Shown: positions 7,540 to 34,237 of the stretch, one piece after another
How the letters are laid out: each line of letters starts with the position of its first letter
Numbering within the stretch: the first letter of the stretch is position 1
Sequence record: NC_055712.1
Direction: 5' to 3' (one strand)
Source: Escherichia phage phT4A
Length of the DNA: 64,000 nucleotides
Program-made: the position numbers and the translations under genes
Notes under the pieces: generated by a model
Told to the model about the DNA's origin: nothing
What the model saw: the letters and a program-made list of their open reading frames with translations, nothing else
Databases searched by the model: none

Positions 7540-8868
7540 TTAGACATAATCAACAGTGAATCGTGCGCGGGTAGTTCCTACATAAAGCAACTGCTTACAC
7601 AATTCATAATCGGCGTATGCGTATGCATCGCGCGTATACATGTATGAATGATCATACGTGCTTCCCTGACCTTTGTGATACGTACAAACCGGAAGCGCCT
7701 TAACCGTCTGGAACTTGTTTTTGATTTGCCAGAACGAATACCAGGGGGCTTTGTATCCGGTTTCCTGTTTCATCTTTTTATACTGAAACGCGACGTAGTT
7801 CAAATAATCGCCTAAACGTTCCTGCATAACCGGATCCGCGATAACCTGAATATCCGCTTTCGTATCCTCGAACATCGATTCTGTTTTCATCAAGAAATAA
7901 TCGATTTGTACCGGATCGCATCGGTCAGCTTTGATAGTATCAGAACGCGGTATGATTTCAAGGATTTTAATTTGCTCGTTGTTGTTATAGATAACTTCAA
8001 CAAACGAAACCCCATTCACACGGCCTTCTGTCACTAACGGTTCTTGCATCACAACCACTTCACCAACAATGAACGGCTGATCAGTTTTGTACAAGTGTTT
8101 ACGGATCACTGCGTTTAACTTGTCTACGTTTGCGTTAGTGTAAGCAAACATACGGTTATTGTTCAGGTCATCCGGAGTCTTAACACGGCTAAAATAACGT
8201 CTCAGGAAGTCACCAGCGTTTTCGTGCTTCATTACCCCTAGTTCACCATTCATGAGGGGCATTAACGGCTTACCGTCGCGTATAGCGCGTGATACCTGGA
8301 TGATTGGGTTTCCTTCTGCCTGACGCATAATCTTATCCATGCGAATGACATCAAAAATTTCCTCATCAAAGAACGGTGAAAGCTCGGTGATCCCTTCGGT
8401 ATTAACAGGACGGATCTGATCCTTATCACCCAATCCCAGGATCACCGCACAACTCGGAATAGTACGCTTGATGATACGGAATAGTTCTTTGTCAACCATC
8501 GATACTTCTTCAACCACAAACACACGACATTCAGACAGATCAGCGGCTTTTTTGCCTTTTTGCTGTTCAAATACTCGTAACTCTTCGTTGGTTACGGGGC
8601 TGATTTTCAGTGCTGAGTGAATGGTCGTTGCATCCATACCCACCGCCTCAGAGAGAACGTTTTTAGCCTGGTGCGTCGGTGCTGTCAACCAGATCCCACT
8701 AATACCCAGTTTTTTCAATGTTTCAAACACAAATTTTACCAGAGTAGTTTTACCAACACCCGGCCCACCTGTGATAGTAGTATGGATTTTGTTTCTGATA
8801 TTTTTAATCACTCGATCATGTGCATTTTTCTGGTCTTCGCTCAGATCGTCAAAAGTTAATTCGCTCAT
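7540..8868 (-). CDS. dda: Dda DNA helicase (SF1)
   Basis: 442 aa; Walker A GGPGVGKTT; collinear with recalled T4 Dda. Confidence 0.9.
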   Translation of the reverse strand: MSELTFDDLSEDQKNAHDRVIKNIRNKIHTTITGGPGVGKTTLVKFVFETLKKLGISGIWLTAPTHQAKNVLSEAVGMDATTIHSALKISPVTNEELRVFEQQKGKKAADLSECRVFVVEEVSMVDKELFRIIKRTIPSCAVILGLGDKDQIRPVNTEGITELSPFFDEEIFDVIRMDKIMRQAEGNPIIQVSRAIRDGKPLMPLMNGELGVMKHENAGDFLRRYFSRVKTPDDLNNNRMFAYTNANVDKLNAVIRKHLYKTDQPFIVGEVVVMQEPLVTEGRVNGVSFVEVIYNNNEQIKILEIIPRSDTIKADRCDPVQIDYFLMKTESMFEDTKADIQVIADPVMQERLGDYLNYVAFQYKKMKQETGYKAPWYSFWQIKNKFQTVKALPVCTYHKGQGSTYDHSYMYTRDAYAYADYELCKQLLYVGTTRARFTVDYV

Positions 8869-9155
8869 ACTTTAATCAATACCCCTTGAATACTTGCGTG
8901 TTCAATAAACCAACGCATATCTTTCTTTTTCTTTTCGGTTACGGTTTCAACTTCTTCCTTTCGAAAGAATCGGCTAAGACCACTTTGTTTAACTGGATTC
9001 ATCTTATCATGATATTCTTTGATAATCGAATTTTTATACTCGTTAGCATCGTCCGGAGATAGAAACAACAAAGGTGTTAACTCTCCTTCCTTAATGAAGG
9101 GAATTTTAAACCCGTCTTTATCCTTACTAACGACGATATAATATTTTGTAATCAT
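8865..9155 (-). CDS. hypothetical protein
   Basis: 96 aa ORF. Confidence 0.5.
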   Translation of the reverse strand: MITKYYIVVSKDKDGFKIPFIKEGELTPLLFLSPDDANEYKNSIIKEYHDKMNPVKQSGLSRFFRKEEVETVTEKKKKDMRWFIEHASIQGVLIKV

Positions 9156-9391
9156 TCTCGCCCCTCATAACAAACGTAGAATATTCCAACAAACCAAAAC
9201 ACTGATAGTATAATCAGTAAAAGTTTTCTTTCAACGCCATTTACGTGAAACACACACCAACCGAAAAGATATGTGATCATCGCGCAAACACCATAAGAAA
9301 GAACCCCAACAGCTACTAGCATCAAAAAGTGCCATTGATCGATACTATAAATATAATAAAGGAGATTATACATGATATCGACCGTAAGCAC
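9152..9391 (-). CDS. hypothetical membrane protein
   Basis: 79 aa, two hydrophobic segments; extended -10 (TGTATAAT) upstream. Confidence 0.4.
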   Translation of the reverse strand: MLTVDIMYNLLYYIYSIDQWHFLMLVAVGVLSYGVCAMITYLFGWCVFHVNGVERKLLLIILSVFWFVGIFYVCYEGRE

Positions 9392-9555
9392 AATAGTTGT
9401 TCATGCTCATTATACAACAACTCCCGTATTTGAAGGAGATATCTACACGTTCAAATACACTTTTCCTATCGAACAGATAGTTCAATTAATGAAAAATAGA
9501 CATCCTATCGGATGGATTACCCCAGCAACAAAACATCTACTAAGGAACACCATCG

Positions 9556-10215
9556 ATGGACTACCGTAAAATTTACACCAATCTTATAGAAAAAGCAAGA
9601 GATAGAACACTAAATTGTTACACAGAAAAGCATCATATCATCCCCCGATGTATGGGAGGTTGTGACGATCATGATAATTTAGTAGAACTTACCGCAGAAG
9701 AACATTATGTAGCCCATCAACTTCTTGTCAAGATGTATCCACACAATAATAAGTTGATATATGCTGCTAATATGATGTGCGTCAACGCAACACAGAGAAA
9801 TAATAAAGCATATGGATGGATCCGCAGAAAGTGGATATCTCAGATATCAAAAGACAGGACAGGGACAAAGGCAACAGAAGAACAACGCAAAAAGATGTCA
9901 GAATCCCATAGGGGAGACAAAAACTCTATGTATGGGTTACGCGGTGATAATCATCCTGCTTATGGTCAAAAACCCTGGAGAAATCAAATAACAATGAAAG
10001 GAAAGCATGAATGGAGGTATGCTGGGATTTTCTATGACTGGTATATTAACGATATTAAAGCTGGAATCTATAAAAGACAAGGACACAAGAGAATGCTACA
10101 AGAATTGCAAATTGCAACAATCTCCCGTGTTCCTAGAACATCAATCGAGTTATTCAAAAAGGGGTGGAACCCTTACGAAGATACCGATTGGGTTGAGTGG
10201 GCTAATAATCAATAG
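9556..10215 (+). CDS. freestanding HNH homing endonuclease (Mob-like), opposite to flanking genes
   Basis: HHIIPRCMGGCDDHDNLVELTAEEHYVAHQ HNH motif; paralog of 31484-32209. Confidence 0.8.
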   Translation: MDYRKIYTNLIEKARDRTLNCYTEKHHIIPRCMGGCDDHDNLVELTAEEHYVAHQLLVKMYPHNNKLIYAANMMCVNATQRNNKAYGWIRRKWISQISKDRTGTKATEEQRKKMSESHRGDKNSMYGLRGDNHPAYGQKPWRNQITMKGKHEWRYAGIFYDWYINDIKAGIYKRQGHKRMLQELQIATISRVPRTSIELFKKGWNPYEDTDWVEWANNQ

Positions 10216-10745
10216 CTGTTGGCCCAACGACGAAGATTTTCGGCTTGTTTAAGAGCGTACATCTTATAAATTGTTTCTGCATCCATACCCAATGCAATAA
10301 ACTTACATAGTACAAAGTGGAATTGGTCGATCATTTCAAACAGAACTTCTAAACGATCCTCTTCACTCAGATCCGCAAATTTAGTATTGCGCAATTCCTG
10401 GTGATTTGCTTTCCACGGTTTCCAAACACCGGATGCAGGTTTAACACCGCGAGACATTCCACCCAGAGCGGTATACAATTCGCGGGTTTCGTCGGCGATC
10501 GCGTCGTCTTGCAGTTTCAGCCAATCAAGGATTTCTCCGCAAGTTTCCAGATTATCAGGACGCGGAACCCAATGCAGGGTATCAGACAGGCTTTGTTGCG
10601 CATGGTTTTGTAAATCCAGCATGGATTGTAAAGGATCGCCATTACGGGCCAGAACCTTTTGATATTCGGAATCTACAAATTCCAGATCTTCCGGGTTAAC
10701 CAGGTGCGCACATGAATTAAATACAGGAGTTTTATCAGTAGTCAT
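10209..10745 (-). CDS. 56: dCTP pyrophosphatase (gp56, MazG-like)
   Basis: 178 aa; collinear with recalled T4 gp56 (CAHL, DPLQ.MLD.Q, FELVDIFHFVL-like). Confidence 0.85.
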   Translation of the reverse strand: MTTDKTPVFNSCAHLVNPEDLEFVDSEYQKVLARNGDPLQSMLDLQNHAQQSLSDTLHWVPRPDNLETCGEILDWLKLQDDAIADETRELYTALGGMSRGVKPASGVWKPWKANHQELRNTKFADLSEEDRLEVLFEMIDQFHFVLCKFIALGMDAETIYKMYALKQAENLRRWANSY

Positions 10746-10752
10746 ATCAATC

Positions 10753-11778
10753 TCATTTTTTCGGTGATTTGTCCCACGACTTAAATCGAAGTTTTGCCGT
10801 GAGTCCAGAAACAGTATTATCTTTCAAATACTGCATAATTTCAAGTTTAGTTGCGCCGTCCGTTTTTATCATTTCGTTGATATCTTTGGAAGGCCACGGG
10901 CATTTATCCCACATTACAACCTTTTCTCCAGCCTCAATCAATTTAAAGAGGCGGTGAGTAGTATCCGGATGACGTGCTTCATTGTCAAGAACCCAGACAC
11001 GCATATTTTTATACGGAACCTCAGAAAGTGCAAGCTGTCCACCAGTGATAGCGCCAGCATTATCAACAAACAGGCTATCTAATGGCCCCTCAAGAAGATA
11101 AACCGTTTTTAGCGGATCTATCGTATCCTGTCCGTAAATCTTGGTTGATTCTTCACAGGCTTTGATTGTGATATATTTCGACTTTGCCCCGTCGCGTAAA
11201 GCACGACCCTGGAAAGATTCAATTTTCCCTTTCTTATCGAAGATAGGGATCACTAATCTCGGTTCTGGTTTTGCGATCGGATAGGTATCCGGATTCACCG
11301 TATTAACCAGTTGTTGCCATTCGCGAGTAAACCACAACCGATCCCACTTGTCACGGGGGATACAACGATTCTGCACATATTTTATGATCGGATGTTCATC
11401 CGGCAAGGTATCTAACCTTTCGCAGAATTGAAGAGTAGGAATAAATTTCTTCTCTTCCTTCGGTTGTTCTGTATGCGTTGGCTTTAACGAATTGCGATCC
11501 TTAAACGATTCCATGAGATAATCACGGTAATCGTCTGGATAATATTCTTTCAGGAATACGCTAAACGGTACACCATAACCACAGTTAAAACAACCACAAT
11601 TCATATGATCACCCTTTTTAGAAGGGTAGATCCAAAATCGTTTTTTGTACTTGTCTTTCATTGAGTCGCCGCAAATAGGGCAACGCGCATTGATGCTTAA
11701 TGCCCCCGATTTACGAACGATTTCGCTTTGAGGCAGTGATCCCATGATTCGGGTTGCAAATTCTATATCAAGATACAT
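10753..11778 (-). CDS. 61: DNA primase (gp61)
   Basis: 341 aa; N-terminal zinc finger CPICGDS, TOPRIM-like core. Confidence 0.9.
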   Translation of the reverse strand: MYLDIEFATRIMGSLPQSEIVRKSGALSINARCPICGDSMKDKYKKRFWIYPSKKGDHMNCGCFNCGYGVPFSVFLKEYYPDDYRDYLMESFKDRNSLKPTHTEQPKEEKKFIPTLQFCERLDTLPDEHPIIKYVQNRCIPRDKWDRLWFTREWQQLVNTVNPDTYPIAKPEPRLVIPIFDKKGKIESFQGRALRDGAKSKYITIKACEESTKIYGQDTIDPLKTVYLLEGPLDSLFVDNAGAITGGQLALSEVPYKNMRVWVLDNEARHPDTTHRLFKLIEAGEKVVMWDKCPWPSKDINEMIKTDGATKLEIMQYLKDNTVSGLTAKLRFKSWDKSPKK

Positions 11779-29548: not shown

Positions 29549-29822
29549 TTACGTTAATATTTTAAACGAAGAAGGGCGATATAAAGCCCTTTATAAAATG
29601 TTTGGATTTGATGTGATTGTTGCAGTACAGCAGGATTCCTATAACGAGTATGTGTCATTGGGGTTCACTCTGATTAAAGACAACTATCACGAAACAAAGG
29701 TTTGGACATTTACTGTCCTGAATAGCATGGATGAAGATTCCGTGATATACTGCTTTGATAGCACGATTACAAACATGATTAGTGATATATCCCAAAGGAT
29801 AATTGATGAAACTCAAATTTAA
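29534..29822 (+). CDS. hypothetical protein
   Basis: ORF between gp47 and gp46; start set at MEIVDY. Confidence 0.4.
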
Positions 29823-31497
29823 AACATTGACTTATCAAAATATCTTGTCGGTTGGTAACGTACCGATCGTCATTGATTTTGATTCAGCAAAGAAAACCCT
29901 CATTACGGGTAAAAACGGCGGTGGTAAATCCACCATGATCGAAGCGCTTACATATGCTCTCTTTGGTAAGTCATTTCGCGATCTGAAAGTCGGACAACTG
30001 GTGAACAGTATCAACAAGAAAAAATGTCTGGTTGAACTGTTGATCGAATACGGCAATGATGAATATAAAATCATCCGTGGACAAAAGCCGAAAGTATTTG
30101 AGATCTGGAAGAATGGCGAAAAACTGCCGGAAGATTCAGCCGCTGGTGATTATCAGTCACAGCTTGAATCAATGTTGAATATTAACCTGGTGGGCTTTAA
30201 ACAGGTTATCGTTCTGGGTACTGCTGGTTATGTACCTTTCATGGAACTAAAAACACCAGATCGCCGTAAACTGGTTGAAGATTTGTTGTCTTTGTCTATC
30301 ATCAGTGAAATGGACAAACTGAACAAATCATACATCCGTGGTGTTAACCGTGAACTGGATACGCTTTCAATGCAGATTGGACACGTACAACAGCAGATCA
30401 CAACACATCAAAAGTTCATTGACGAACAACGGGCAAAAGCAAATCAGAATACGGCGCGTTACCAGGATATCTACGATTCCCACGTAGAAACAGCAAAACA
30501 GATTAAAGCGCAATTAGTTGAACTTCAAACCCAGATCGCAGAATGTGTGATCAATGGTGAAGACCAAACAGCAAATATTCAAAAACTGCGTGATGGCTAT
30601 ACACGCCTCTCAATGAACGTAGAACAGTTGCAGCGTCTTGAGGTGATGTATCGCAAGGGTGGTGAATGTCCGGCCTGTAAACAGCCAATTAGCCCCACTC
30701 CTGAACGCATGGAAGAAATTGCCGAGAACATTAAAAACGGTACTCAGAAACTTACGCTGATTAAGAACAAGCAAGATCAGCTACAGAAAATCATGGATGA
30801 TTTACTAACACAACAACGTACACTAAATGGGCTGAAATCCAAATACGAATCACTACGCGGTACACTTCAAAATGAAGTTGCAGCGGCTAAACGTGTTCGG
30901 GCTGTCATGGATAAAGCACAGGAAGACGTGGTGATCGACGAATCCCCAGTTGAAAAACTCCGTGAAGATGAAAAGGAACTTGATTCTAAACGTTCTGGAT
31001 TTGTCAAGGAAAAATATTTTAGAGGTATTGTTACGGATCTGCTGAAAGATTCCGGCGTTAAAGCGAGCATCGTTAAACGTTATATTCCTTACTTCAATAA
31101 ACAGATTGCGTACTATCTGGATCTGTTGGGTGCTGATTATCAGTTCACTCTGGATGACGAATTTAACGAATCGATTAAATCGCTGGGTCGTAATGATTTT
31201 AGTTACGCATCGTTCAGTCAAGGCGAAAGAGCACGTATTAACCTTGCTTTATTGTTCACCTGGCGCGATGTAACCAGTAAAATTTCTGGTGTTGATTTAT
31301 CCCTTCTGATCCTGGATGAAGTGTACGATGGTGCAATTGATCGTGATGGTAGTTTTGCTGTAAAAGCACTATTGGATGGGATAAATGGTAACGTAATTGT
31401 TATCAGTCATCAGGATTTGGATCCGGAAGATTTCGACCGACATATTGTTATGTCAAAAGTCGGTCGATTCTCTAAAATGGAAGTTAAGAAGTCTTAA
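29803..31497 (+). CDS. 46: recombination endonuclease subunit (gp46, Rad50/SbcC-like ATPase)
   Basis: 564 aa; Walker A GKNGGGKST, coiled-coil middle, signature/Walker B at C-terminus. Confidence 0.9.
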   Translation: MMKLKFKTLTYQNILSVGNVPIVIDFDSAKKTLITGKNGGGKSTMIEALTYALFGKSFRDLKVGQLVNSINKKKCLVELLIEYGNDEYKIIRGQKPKVFEIWKNGEKLPEDSAAGDYQSQLESMLNINLVGFKQVIVLGTAGYVPFMELKTPDRRKLVEDLLSLSIISEMDKLNKSYIRGVNRELDTLSMQIGHVQQQITTHQKFIDEQRAKANQNTARYQDIYDSHVETAKQIKAQLVELQTQIAECVINGEDQTANIQKLRDGYTRLSMNVEQLQRLEVMYRKGGECPACKQPISPTPERMEEIAENIKNGTQKLTLIKNKQDQLQKIMDDLLTQQRTLNGLKSKYESLRGTLQNEVAAAKRVRAVMDKAQEDVVIDESPVEKLREDEKELDSKRSGFVKEKYFRGIVTDLLKDSGVKASIVKRYIPYFNKQIAYYLDLLGADYQFTLDDEFNESIKSLGRNDFSYASFSQGERARINLALLFTWRDVTSKISGVDLSLLILDEVYDGAIDRDGSFAVKALLDGINGNVIVISHQDLDPEDFDRHIVMSKVGRFSKMEVKKS

Positions 31498-32209
31498 ACT
31501 TGCAGTTATCAAAATGCCAGCGATTCATATTGCTGGCATCACCAGATTTATTGCAATATGGACAAATCAACTGCTTCCTTTTTGCTGGCGTCTTTCTATT
31601 TGGGTTATTTCTGCAATACGGTATATGTGAACGCAGATAATGTAATGACGATTCTGTTCCGCAATATGGACAATTGCCCCGTTCTTTAGGTACGTTTCCG
31701 TTCTTATGGGAACACGGGATACCCTCGAACTTATGTTTCAATCCTTCATTACCTGGTTTCAGTTTGCAGTTGTCGAAGTGCCAACGAGTCATATTTCCAA
31801 TTATACCTGATTTTCCGCAATGAGGACACACAACCCTTTCTTGTTGCTTTTTGGCTTTACTCATTCGCTGTCTGGTTTCTTCGGTGAACTCTCTATTCCT
31901 ATGTGCTTCTGACGCCTTTTTCTTTAACCATTCATAGCGGCGGTTAGCTGTTCTTTCCTTTGATCTATTGGAACCAACTGTTAACATATGTGCTGCAAAA
32001 ACAAGTTTGTTGTTTCCTGGGTACATCTTGACTAATAACAGATGCGCAATATAATGTTGACGCGCTGTAAGATTAACCAAATTATCATCAGAATCTGTTC
32101 CACCTATGCACTTAGGTATGATATGGTGTGATTCTGTATATCCATCATACTGCGTTTGTTTAGCATGTTCTATGATAGAGTTATAAATTTTGTTATAGTT
32201 CATAAACAT
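31484..32209 (-). CDS. freestanding HNH homing endonuclease with C-terminal zinc-finger repeats
   Basis: HHIIPKCIGGTDSDDNLVNLTARQHYIAH; repeated CP.CxKSG...RWHFDNCK modules; paralog of 9556-10215. Confidence 0.8.
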   Translation of the reverse strand: MFMNYNKIYNSIIEHAKQTQYDGYTESHHIIPKCIGGTDSDDNLVNLTARQHYIAHLLLVKMYPGNNKLVFAAHMLTVGSNRSKERTANRRYEWLKKKASEAHRNREFTEETRQRMSKAKKQQERVVCPHCGKSGIIGNMTRWHFDNCKLKPGNEGLKHKFEGIPCSHKNGNVPKERGNCPYCGTESSLHYLRSHIPYCRNNPNRKTPAKRKQLICPYCNKSGDASNMNRWHFDNCKFKTS

Positions 32210-32259
32210 ATCTCTTGTTTGATGGGCCGTTAGATACCCCTATTTAAGAGGATGAAATT

Positions 32260-32454
32260 ATGTTATTAGAAAAATCTTTTGAATTAGAAACCGCTCCGGA
32301 AATAGAGCGGTTTTATCTCCACAACAATTTTCTTGAAGAAAAACATATAGTTACTATGAAAGATGTTGAAGAAGCATTCAAAGATAACCCTATAGAGTTG
32401 ACGCGAATCAAGAACAACAAAAGTTCTGTTTGGTTCCTCGAAAAAATCTATTGA
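32260..32454 (+). CDS. hypothetical protein
   Basis: 64 aa; SD AAGAGGA. Confidence 0.4.
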   Translation: MLLEKSFELETAPEIERFYLHNNFLEEKHIVTMKDVEEAFKDNPIELTRIKNNKSSVWFLEKIY

Positions 32455-32527
32455 CCGAAATCCATAAATACAGTAAAGTAGCCCATGTAACGAAACGTGG
32501 GCTTTGTTTTTATTTGAGGAACAATAA

Positions 32528-34237
32528 ATGATCACCGAATCCAAAATGACTTATCAGGAAGCACTGAAAGTTTTGGGCGCAACTGGTAGCGAAACCAGCG
32601 CTGAAATGTCCAGACTCTTCAAACGTGCATCCTTACGCAATCACCCCGACCGTGGTGGTAGCAATGAATTAATGCAGAAAATCAACCAGGCTTACGATGT
32701 CGTTACAAAAACTGGGCCTAGTGGCGCACGTTCTGAGACTGCTGGTGATGTTCGAGCACGTTATGCCCGTCAAAAGAAAGAATGGGAAGAAAAAGTTGAT
32801 GCTTACTTTGTAGTGGCGAAAAACTATTTCAGCACCAAATTTAACGCACAGGAATTTGCGGATTACTTCACCAAATACACTGGATTGCCTACCACTTTCA
32901 AACAGGAAGTAACAAAAGGTAGTCACGGTGTTTATGCTTCGTTCCGTTTCACTTCTGGTGATGCTTACTTTGATTTCGGTTTCAACTGCACCCCTCCGAA
33001 TGGACAAGGGTTAGCCGCTCCGGATTCATCTGCACTGGGTAGCGTTTCTGTTAGTACCTTTGTACTGGTTGGAACTAAAAAACACAAAATGGCAAGCCGT
33101 GATTATCAATGGGGCAAAAACCCGGATAAGATCACTCCGGAAAGCCTGTTCCCGTCTAAAAAACTGGAAAGCATTTTCAGCCCTGTACAGAAAAATATCA
33201 AATACAAACGTGCTGACTACCTGGCATCATTCCGTAAGCTGTTAGGCGCTGACGTTAGCGGAAACGATATCTTTGTTGAAGTTGGTACACTGAAAGTTCG
33301 TTTCTATCGTCACGTATTCATGCGCAAAGGTGCTTATGTGTTTAGCGCGGTGTATGATCCTGCTGTATCGAAGTATCGTCCGGCTGCACAACTTCGCGGA
33401 ACCATGTTCGAAGACGAGGACGGCGCTTGCCTGGATATGATCGTTGATACGTTCAAAGAGTTGCAGAAACTGAAACCGAGTGTTCAAGGCGTTGTGAACG
33501 CGATCGATAAGATGAACGCAGAGTTTGCGGCGGGGCATCGTTCAGCATCTTTTGTTAAACGTGTAGCTGCTCAGGAAGCCGCACCGAAGCCAGAAGAGAA
33601 GCCAAAACGCACTGTTAATCGTATCGGTAAAGAGGAATATTTCGCAGCACTAAAAGATATTGGTGCTCGTGTAATGCCTACCAGCGGTTATGTTGAATTT
33701 GATAACGGCGCTGGTGTTACTATCAACTTCAAGCGTATTGTTGTAAACCGTAAAGCATACTACTCATTCAGTAGCTTTGATTTCACGTACTCTGGTCAGA
33801 AACACATTGAGTGGTTGAAAGGAATCGATATCGCAGAAGATACCAAAGGCGCAAGCATTAGCCTACTCACTGATACTCTGAAATCTTTACGTGGGATCTC
33901 TGACTGGAACACTGTTAAGAGCGCTTTAGATCAAATGAATTCTAACTTCAAGGCGGGTAAATTCTCCGCACCTCATGTGAAGAAGGAAGCAGAGCAAAAA
34001 GCACCGAAACAGAAAGACGAAATCGGCGCACAGCCTACCAAACCACAGGCGGCTAAGAAAGATACACCAGAAGTGGAAAAATCACAGGCTGTTCATGCAG
34101 CACGTGAGAAAGCGAATATGAACAACACTATTCGTAAAATGATGACTATGTTAGTCAAAGCACAGCGCAAAGACACTCCGGAAGATATCAAGAAGGAAGT
34201 TGATGCAGCAATTCAATTGTGGCGCTTGACTTATTAA
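32528..34237 (+). CDS. J-domain (DnaJ-like) protein with internally repeated C-terminal modules
   Basis: N-terminal J-domain with HPD motif (LRNHPDRGG...QKINQAYDVV); two or three related ~130-aa modules; host-optimal codons. Confidence 0.8.
   Translation: MITESKMTYQEALKVLGATGSETSAEMSRLFKRASLRNHPDRGGSNELMQKINQAYDVVTKTGPSGARSETAGDVRARYARQKKEWEEKVDAYFVVAKNYFSTKFNAQEFADYFTKYTGLPTTFKQEVTKGSHGVYASFRFTSGDAYFDFGFNCTPPNGQGLAAPDSSALGSVSVSTFVLVGTKKHKMASRDYQWGKNPDKITPESLFPSKKLESIFSPVQKNIKYKRADYLASFRKLLGADVSGNDIFVEVGTLKVRFYRHVFMRKGAYVFSAVYDPAVSKYRPAAQLRGTMFEDEDGACLDMIVDTFKELQKLKPSVQGVVNAIDKMNAEFAAGHRSASFVKRVAAQEAAPKPEEKPKRTVNRIGKEEYFAALKDIGARVMPTSGYVEFDNGAGVTINFKRIVVNRKAYYSFSSFDFTYSGQKHIEWLKGIDIAEDTKGASISLLTDTLKSLRGISDWNTVKSALDQMNSNFKAGKFSAPHVKKEAEQKAPKQKDEIGAQPTKPQAAKKDTPEVEKSQAVHAAREKANMNNTIRKMMTMLVKAQRKDTPEDIKKEVDAAIQLWRLTY

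Follow-up and report, generated by a model that had tools for sequence, protein, structure and literature searches.

Two predicted Mob-type HNH homing endonuclease cassettes, at gene 56 and gene 46 of a phage related to the Klebsiella slopekviruses

The two HNH genes and their surroundings

The window, by which we mean the whole 64-kb stretch of DNA analysed here, carries two genes for HNH proteins, referred to below as HNH1 and HNH2. By megablast it falls within the Klebsiella slopekviruses of the KP15/Matisse/PMBT1 group in the family Straboviridae. The features around HNH1 are:

7540–8868, minus strand: dda
9152–9391, minus strand: small membrane ORF (PHROG 12667), which takes a new N-terminus, MYNLLYYIYSIDQWHFLM, from the left end of the HNH1 cassette
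9556–10215, plus strand: HNH1, 219 aa
9631–9717, plus strand: HNH motif of HNH1 (aa 26–54)
9862–9936, plus strand: NUMOD3 of HNH1 (aa 103–127), above the Pfam threshold
9943–10212, plus strand: helical C-terminal domain of HNH1 (aa 130–219)
10209–10745, minus strand: gene 56 (dCTPase / NTP pyrophosphohydrolase; PHROG 173), the presumed target of HNH1
10753–11778, minus strand: primase gene 61, beyond gene 56

Those around HNH2 are:

29803–31497, plus strand: gene 46 (SbcC-like), convergent with HNH2
31484–32209, minus strand: HNH2, 241 aa, with a second ATG at 32203 as the likely start
31766–31828, 31613–31672 and 31502–31564, minus strand: three CCHC modules of HNH2, C-terminal to its Mob-like HNH domain

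An earlier sequence-only reading had placed HNH1 between the Dda-region genes and gene 56, and HNH2 antisense just after gene 46. The ORF list agrees with it to the base for both genes and puts each on the strand opposite to its neighbours. HNH1 has the small membrane ORF and dda on one side, where a 96-aa ORF also lies on the minus strand, and gene 56 on the other; HNH1 and gene 56 are convergent, and their 3' ends overlap by 7 bp. HNH2 and gene 46 converge, with a 14-bp overlap at the 3' end of gene 46, and plus-strand genes lie on the other side of HNH2. Both genes are free-standing: they sit at former stop/start junctions of intact neighbour genes, with no intron or intein.

The best T4 match of HNH1 was MobB (46% over 133 aa, E 9e-31). 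A tblastn search of T4 matched five places, and HNH2 also aligns with MobB. Both proteins matched PHROG 655, annotated 'homing endonuclease' (E 1.5e-70 for HNH1 and 9.3e-63 for HNH2). Residues H26, H27, N41, H50 and H54 are invariant among 28 homologues and recur in HNH2, and the motif can be aligned with the corresponding ones of McrA and a group II intron maturase. Scores against the Pfam HNH family (PF01844) fell below its 21.4-bit gathering threshold (14.7 bits for HNH1, 18.6 bits for HNH2), yet the motif is clear by alignment. Neither a profile match nor an I-HmuI fold match linked the proteins to the I-HmuI-like HNH_3 group. Between the window and the L011 allele described below, HNH1 has a dN/dS of 0.14 at a dS of 0.84, which shows that the protein is maintained by selection. 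The MobB homology and the intact HNH motif uphold the free-standing Mob-like HNH type proposed earlier. This basic call as a Mob-like homing endonuclease is routine, and several GenBank relatives are already annotated so.

The same reading had described the two genes as a paralog pair, a description that stands for the N-terminal nuclease domain and fails for the C-terminal halves, which are unrelated. BLASTP aligned aa 1–121 only (58/121 identities, 48%, E 9e-36), and the block HHIIP(R/K)C.GG.D..DNLV.LTA..HY.AH.LLVKMYP.NNKL, noted earlier as shared, was found in both proteins. The repeated zinc modules reported for HNH2 are also there: modules 1 and 3 are near-identical (CPHCGKSGIIGNMTRWHFDNC, aa 128–148, and CPYCNKSGDASNMNRWHFDNC, aa 216–236), and we found between them a divergent middle module that had been missed (CPYCGTESSLHYLRSHIPYC, aa 180–199), all three following the pattern CxxC...HxxxC. 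Because no relationship links the C-terminal halves, and the positional counterparts in other phage genera are separate for the two genes, we take HNH1 and HNH2 to be two independently acquired family members, with no duplication within the genome. An origin as duplicated paralogs is not borne out, the likeness being confined to the N-terminal nuclease domain.

Allelic states of the two sites

We compared the window with a close-relative set of ~113 GenBank records, at least 90% identical across the flanking genes, using phi1_146007 (L001) as the empty-allele reference for the HNH1 site and KP15 and Miro for the HNH2 site. The wider family was sampled through 80 further family loci from IMG/VR, and the closest full-length homologues of HNH1 came from metagenomes. 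Two features define the HNH1 site:

9321–10212: HNH1 cassette, 892 bp replacing 20 bp (L001 2322–2341), from blastn break points
10210–10334, minus strand: foreign 3' end of gene 56 (codons 136–178), co-converted and presumably cleavage-immune

By blastn, homology to phi1_146007 stops at window position 9320 and restarts at 10213. Where the cassette is missing, the stop of gene 56 and the start of the small membrane ORF overlap. This native start was lost with the insertion, and in the window the ORF takes its start from cassette sequence. Within the ~113 records, HNH1 cassette DNA occurs as 20 complete copies, one truncated copy and one copy at a contig end, all in Klebsiella slopekviruses. 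The remnant in KLB1 has lost 700 bp between imperfect direct repeats of 13–14 nt (ACAACAACTCCCGT and GCAACAATCTCCCGT; window 9415–9427 and 10115–10127). A second cassette allele, found in the metagenomic slopekvirus L011 and also in L010, has ~80% DNA and 82% protein identity; the divergence of the L011 allele spans ~9300 to ~10290, and its flanks are 100% identical to the window. KM2 and Lychee_ER51 are without the cassette and have the native junction, yet they carry the foreign gene 56 tract, with two different crossover points, and are presumably resistant.

The foreign tract itself is sharply bounded. Window and empty allele differ at 33 positions in 10210–10334 and at ~10 across the other 5 kb. 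Codons 136–178 of gene 56 hold 23 synonymous and 10 non-synonymous changes, with synonymous sites essentially saturated, while codons 1–135 hold no differences. This stretch of ~125–128 bp is 74–75% identical to cassette-free slopekviruses and 79% identical to the Pseudotevenvirus RB43; being closer to the gene 56 of RB43, it is foreign DNA. The window-type tract was found at 95% identity or more in 24 records, KM2 and Lychee_ER51 included. These ~113 near-identical phages therefore display every stage of a homing cycle at one site: sensitive empty alleles, occupied alleles of two diverged kinds, a deletion remnant, and cassette-free alleles with the foreign tract.

At the gene 46 site, the features are:

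31446–32265: HNH2 cassette, 820 bp replacing 60 bp, by comparison with the empty alleles of KP15 and Miro
31446–31497, plus strand: gene 46 tail supplied by the cassette, the last 17 codons being replaced and ending in IVMSKVGRFSKMEVKKS before the stop
32227–32248, minus strand: CTTAAATAGGGGTATCTAACGG, a conserved block ahead of HNH2 that comes close to the late-promoter consensus (6/8)
L005 1625–2200, gene 46 strand: alternative HNH gene, at the equivalent of window 31477–32265

The junction is of the same type as at the HNH1 site: in empty alleles, the stop of gene 46 and the start of a 63-aa gene overlap. HNH2 is present in 48 of the ~113 records, an unrelated HNH gene in 21, and the rest are empty, KP15 and Miro among them. 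The alternative gene encodes 184 aa on the gene 46 strand, and its 21 records, all from Klebsiella phages, include Matisse, ER54 and KLB1. Two endonucleases thus compete for the gene 46 site. The gene 46 tail varies with the state of the site: the empty tail of KP15 ends in ITMQKVGRFTKCTINDRGA before the stop; the window tail (ending in SKMEVKKS) is that of Cronobacter phage leB and is unlike those of KP15 and ER54; and the alternative HNH gene comes with a third version, the last 678 bp of gene 46 being 92.6% identical. Co-conversion of flanking sequence, a mark of homing-endonuclease genes, was accordingly found both at gene 56 and at the gene 46 tail.

HNH2 has a positional counterpart in leB, a Pseudotevenvirus, with 67% identity and the same 14-bp overlap with gene 46. 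At the DNA level this counterpart is 65–78% identical to HNH2, as diverged as the flanks, which suggests that the element is old. HNH2 may have been inherited mostly vertically within genera, with losses, rather than being in active homing now, and its recent history in slopekviruses may consist of loss or replacement as much as gain. A counterpart in the Jiaodavirus Roth78 has 43% identity and the same arrangement of three zinc modules. A 20-nt core of the conserved upstream block is identical in the window and leB, where the flanks are only ~70% identical, and contains CTTAAATA or CCTAAATA; Roth78 has an exact TATAAATA, the late-promoter octamer, at the equivalent upstream position.

Presence and absence of the cassettes, base-precise empty alleles, bounded foreign tracts, a decayed copy and cassette-free recombinants together bear out the intronless-homing arrangement that had been suggested for these genes. 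Genes at identical positions in all relatives, the outcome that would have spoken against it, were not what the comparison returned, both cassettes being polymorphic among the ~113 genomes.

Two observations concern the DNA beyond HNH2. A strong terminator-like hairpin (32480–32503, plus strand; 9-bp stem and T-run) follows a 64-aa gene downstream of HNH2, at a position annotated as a terminator in KP15 and Miro. Farther on, a 569-aa protein is encoded at 32528–34237 (plus strand), with a DnaJ domain in the Miro annotation. In ER54 it appears as two called genes (1047 bp and 564 bp) although the DNA is ~98% identical, and the split is either a frameshift or nonsense difference or a difference of annotation or sequencing.

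Gene 56 as the likely target and the interior of the HNH1 cassette

Having established the states of the site, we turned to the association of HNH1 with gene 56. Six homologues of HNH1 were compared (P0002, 82%; P0003, 54%; P0007, 52%; P0009, 51%; P0012, 49%; P0014, 49%), and each is antisense and convergent to an ORF of 172–191 aa. These ORFs are 99% (L010), 53% (L012) and 39% (L013) identical to the window gp56; those of L012 and L013 belong, as gp56 does, to PHROG 173, and those of L020, L021 and L022 have the gp56 motif in their C-terminal sequences. The HNH1 subfamily is thereby found beside gene 56 in four other T4-like lineages (49–54% identity), with a varying neighbour on the opposite side. 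In the wider sample, adjacency to gene 56 was seen at only 2 of the 80 loci, both of the HNH1 subfamily, and at none of the 78 more distant ones. The recurrent convergence in four other lineages points to gene 56 as the likely target. The assignment of the target site is indirect, in that the promoter-side element described below has no significant similarity to the resident gene 56 copies and that cassette-free relatives of L013, L020 and L022 are absent from the comparison. We infer that the C-terminal domain of the HNH1 subfamily is specific for gene 56.

The T4 endonuclease SegF, a GIY-YIG enzyme, lies at the soc/56 junction and targets gene 56 (PMC2988022, Table 1). With SegF and the HNH1 subfamily both at gene 56, nucleases of two unrelated families would have come to target it. 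The resident segment 10308–10332, on the inner border of the foreign tract, has 10 differences from the empty allele in its 25 positions. On either reading of the promoter-side element given below, HNH1 would recognise or cleave gene 56 at about codons 139–146, ~95–120 bp from the insertion point, a distance within the known range for free-standing endonucleases (PMC2988022).

Upstream of HNH1, the cassette holds three further features:

9320–9344, plus strand: gene-56-like element CATCAAAAAGTGCCATTGATCGATA, ending one base before TATAAATA
9346–9353, plus strand: T4-type late promoter TATAAATA, followed by AAGGAG and the start codon of orf65
9372–9569, plus strand: orf65, an orphan gene of 65 aa whose end runs 14 nt into HNH1

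Both strands of the 64-kb window were scanned for the late-promoter octamer, and this is its one exact occurrence, where shuffled sequences had a mean of 3.9. A single copy fits a region of early and middle genes that avoids late promoters. The octamer stands 25–45 nt ahead of the start codon in ~25 of the 80 wider family loci, which suggests that late expression from an own promoter is common in the family. An AAGGA also precedes HNH1 by nine nucleotides. Compared with the ~80%-identical L011 allele, orf65 has a dN/dS of 0.08–0.11 with dS above 1.2, which shows that it is a real gene; searches gave it no relative outside the HNH1 cassette and no family assignment. A near-perfect sigma-70-like promoter candidate lies antisense within HNH1 (9704–9731, minus strand; TTGACA, 16 nt, CATAAT; 11/12) and points to the small ORF and dda. 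Since the L011 cassette does not share it, we set it aside as a probable chance match.

The element next to the promoter resembles the part of gene 56 in which the HNH1 target presumably lies. Read on the minus strand it gives I-D-Q-W-H-F-L-M, and it agrees with the empty-allele gene 56 (L001 2437–2461, coding for IDQWHFFM) at 22 of 25 positions with a 15-nt exact core, a match reached by none of 300 shuffles. Its similarity to the resident, presumably immune, gene 56 copies was not above chance. It occurs in five cassettes (window, L011, L013, L020 and L022) in the form AAAAGTGCCA, 3 nt, R-T-S-R-A and then 0–3 nt to TATAAATA; it was not found in the L012 cassette or in the 78 family loci away from gene 56.

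We consider the element to be either an autorepression operator in the style of I-TevI or a scar left at the break when the cassette first inserted. The chance that it is a non-regulatory leftover of the recipient's gene 56, later serving as an N-terminal extension or translation start of the downstream gene, falls somewhat short of even. Such an origin would explain why the element matches native empty-allele slopekvirus sequence, down to a lineage-specific CAA codon. It would also suit the coding character of the copies, all of which read I-D-x-W-H-F on the minus strand and differ only at third codon positions or at codon x, and whose minus frame continues, in frame and stop-free, into the next gene at four of the five loci (window, L011, L013 and L020). 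Against it, the downstream genes of L013 and L020 keep their own ATG with the element upstream of it, the element in these two loci is 18/21 identical to the window copy where the endonucleases are only ~50% identical, and the spacing between element and TATAAATA is fixed within 0–3 nt across five cassettes. Building on the operator alternative, the HNH1 cassette might be a mobile unit of two genes, with a copy of the homing site guarding the late promoter and with orf65 acting in homing; we hold this composite picture to be doubtful. If true, it would amount to I-TevI-style autorepression in a free-standing HNH/Mob endonuclease, and orf65 could possibly serve second-strand cleavage, target choice or self-protection.

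Proposed homing, rival explanations and known systems

HNH1 and HNH2 display the sequence-level and population-level traits by which Mob-type free-standing homing endonucleases are recognised, the C-terminal DNA-binding region being a putative one. We put the probability that both genes are free-standing T4 Mob-type homing-endonuclease genes, as predicted here, at roughly 85%. Late in a mixed infection, the endonuclease would be made from its own TATAAATA promoter and would nick or cut the neighbouring gene in a genome that lacks the cassette. With HNH1 this would most likely happen in the IDQWHFFM-coding stretch of gene 56, ~95–120 bp from the insertion point, and the nick or cut is predicted to be strand-specific, within or beside ATCGATCAATGGCATTTCTTTATG of the KP15-type gene 56 only. 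The break would be resected and then repaired off the cassette-bearing genome by the phage recombination machinery, and this repair would copy the cassette together with the immune 3' gene end into the recipient. Each cassette is placed antisense where the stop of one gene meets the start of the next, and it converges on a conserved gene whose 3' end it overlaps, gene 56 in the case of HNH1 and gene 46 in that of HNH2.

The genes could instead be kept because they benefit the phage, and so not be purely selfish, through marker exclusion of co-infecting relatives or by stimulating recombination or amplification close to replication genes. They would still act by site-specific nicking, but it would be the phage on which selection works. 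Such a benefit agrees with the purifying selection seen for HNH1 and orf65, with the long association of the HNH1 subfamily with gene 56 across genera and with HNH2 counterparts as old as the genus split. There are precedents as well: T4 SegF and SegG cause marker exclusion (PMC2330249), and SegB is reported to aid anti-defence amplification (PMC13096335). HNH1 is, however, missing from most slopekviruses, a decayed copy and clean losses occur, and unrelated HNH genes compete for the same sites. Given this rarity, decay and competition, a cycle of gain, decay and loss fits better than a fixed benefit, and we regard retention for the good of the phage as unlikely. It is very improbable that the endonucleases are catalytically dead relics, like T4 I-TevIII, with a polymorphism that arose from ordinary recombination and hitch-hiking. 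The sub-threshold Pfam HNH scores would suit relics, KLB1 shows that decay happens, and the activity of both proteins is a predicted one. Yet the catalytic residues are invariant over the 28 homologues, and between the two cassette alleles HNH1 has a dN/dS of 0.14 with a dS of 0.84. Moreover, the foreign tract has a single sharp end, codon 136 of gene 56, as break-initiated repair predicts and random crossovers do not.

As Mob-type homing endonucleases, HNH1 and HNH2 would resemble T4 MobA–MobE, which are likewise free-standing intergenic genes with an N-terminal HNH and a variable C-terminal half, a putative DNA-binding region in HNH1 and HNH2, sited beside nucleotide-metabolism or replication genes. 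MobE nicks the neighbour gene of a cassette-free phage and is inherited with its flanks via double-strand-break repair (PMC2790892; PMC2988022). Insertion sites and targets differ: MobE belongs to nrdB and MobA to gene 39, where the window has gene 56 and gene 46. The cassettes here are antisense with a late-type promoter of their own, whereas T4 mobE is promoterless and co-transcribed (PMC2790892). The second gene in the HNH1 cassette, orf65, is a further difference from T4 Mob.

HNH1 is also comparable to T4 SegF, which occupies the same niche just downstream of gene 56 and has, by inference, the same target gene. SegF reportedly cuts ~210 bp from its own insertion site. It excludes T2 gene 56 markers (PMC2330249), and HNH1 is similarly linked to a replaced gene 56 3' end. 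The two differ in nuclease type (GIY-YIG versus HNH) and in arrangement: HNH1 lies antisense and has a late promoter, whereas segF shares the orientation of its neighbours and is promoterless. A third parallel is with I-TevI, since a look-alike of the presumed homing site (22/25) stands against HNH1's own late promoter; I-TevI represses its own late promoter, and its operator and homing site agree at 15 of 20 positions (PMC2988022). I-TevI is an intron-encoded GIY-YIG enzyme, though, while the homing site of HNH1 is a presumed one and the operator role only a candidate.

Homing endonucleases have been recorded in this group before. The leB counterpart of HNH2 is annotated 'putative Mob-like HNH homing endonuclease', the slopekviruses vB_KmiM-2Di and vB_KmiM-4Dii also carry homing endonucleases, and a related paper describes a MobE-like gene beside the dCTPase gene of a Jiaodavirus. 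The relevant passages of a preprint report that homing-endonuclease content varies among slopekviruses, with one gene beside the SbcC-like gene 46, and are silent on boundaries, co-converted tracts, promoter, orf65, decay states and any inference of a target (10.1101/2022.04.06.486684). In the literature consulted, we likewise found no mention of the cassette boundaries, the foreign gene 56 tract, the full set of life-cycle states or the convergence with SegF on gene 56, nor of the co-mobile orf65, the only exact late promoter or the homing-site-like element at that promoter. A review of T4 treats gene conversion driven by HNH nicking endonucleases as an open question (PMC2988022), and the gene 56 site offers a ready natural system for HNH (nicking) endonuclease-driven gene conversion. 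For phage-therapy genomics, the cassettes explain part of the small differences among slopekvirus isolates.

A third and different HNH gene, missing from the window, lies at the junction of genes 56 and 61 in KLB1 and R2_1. It encodes 165 aa on the same strand as its neighbours (L002 3039–3536 and L003 3740–4237), at the equivalent of window 10746–10752. A diverged tract of its own goes with this gene; it takes in gene 56 at its 5' end and gene 61 at its 3' end (window equivalent 10713–10990).
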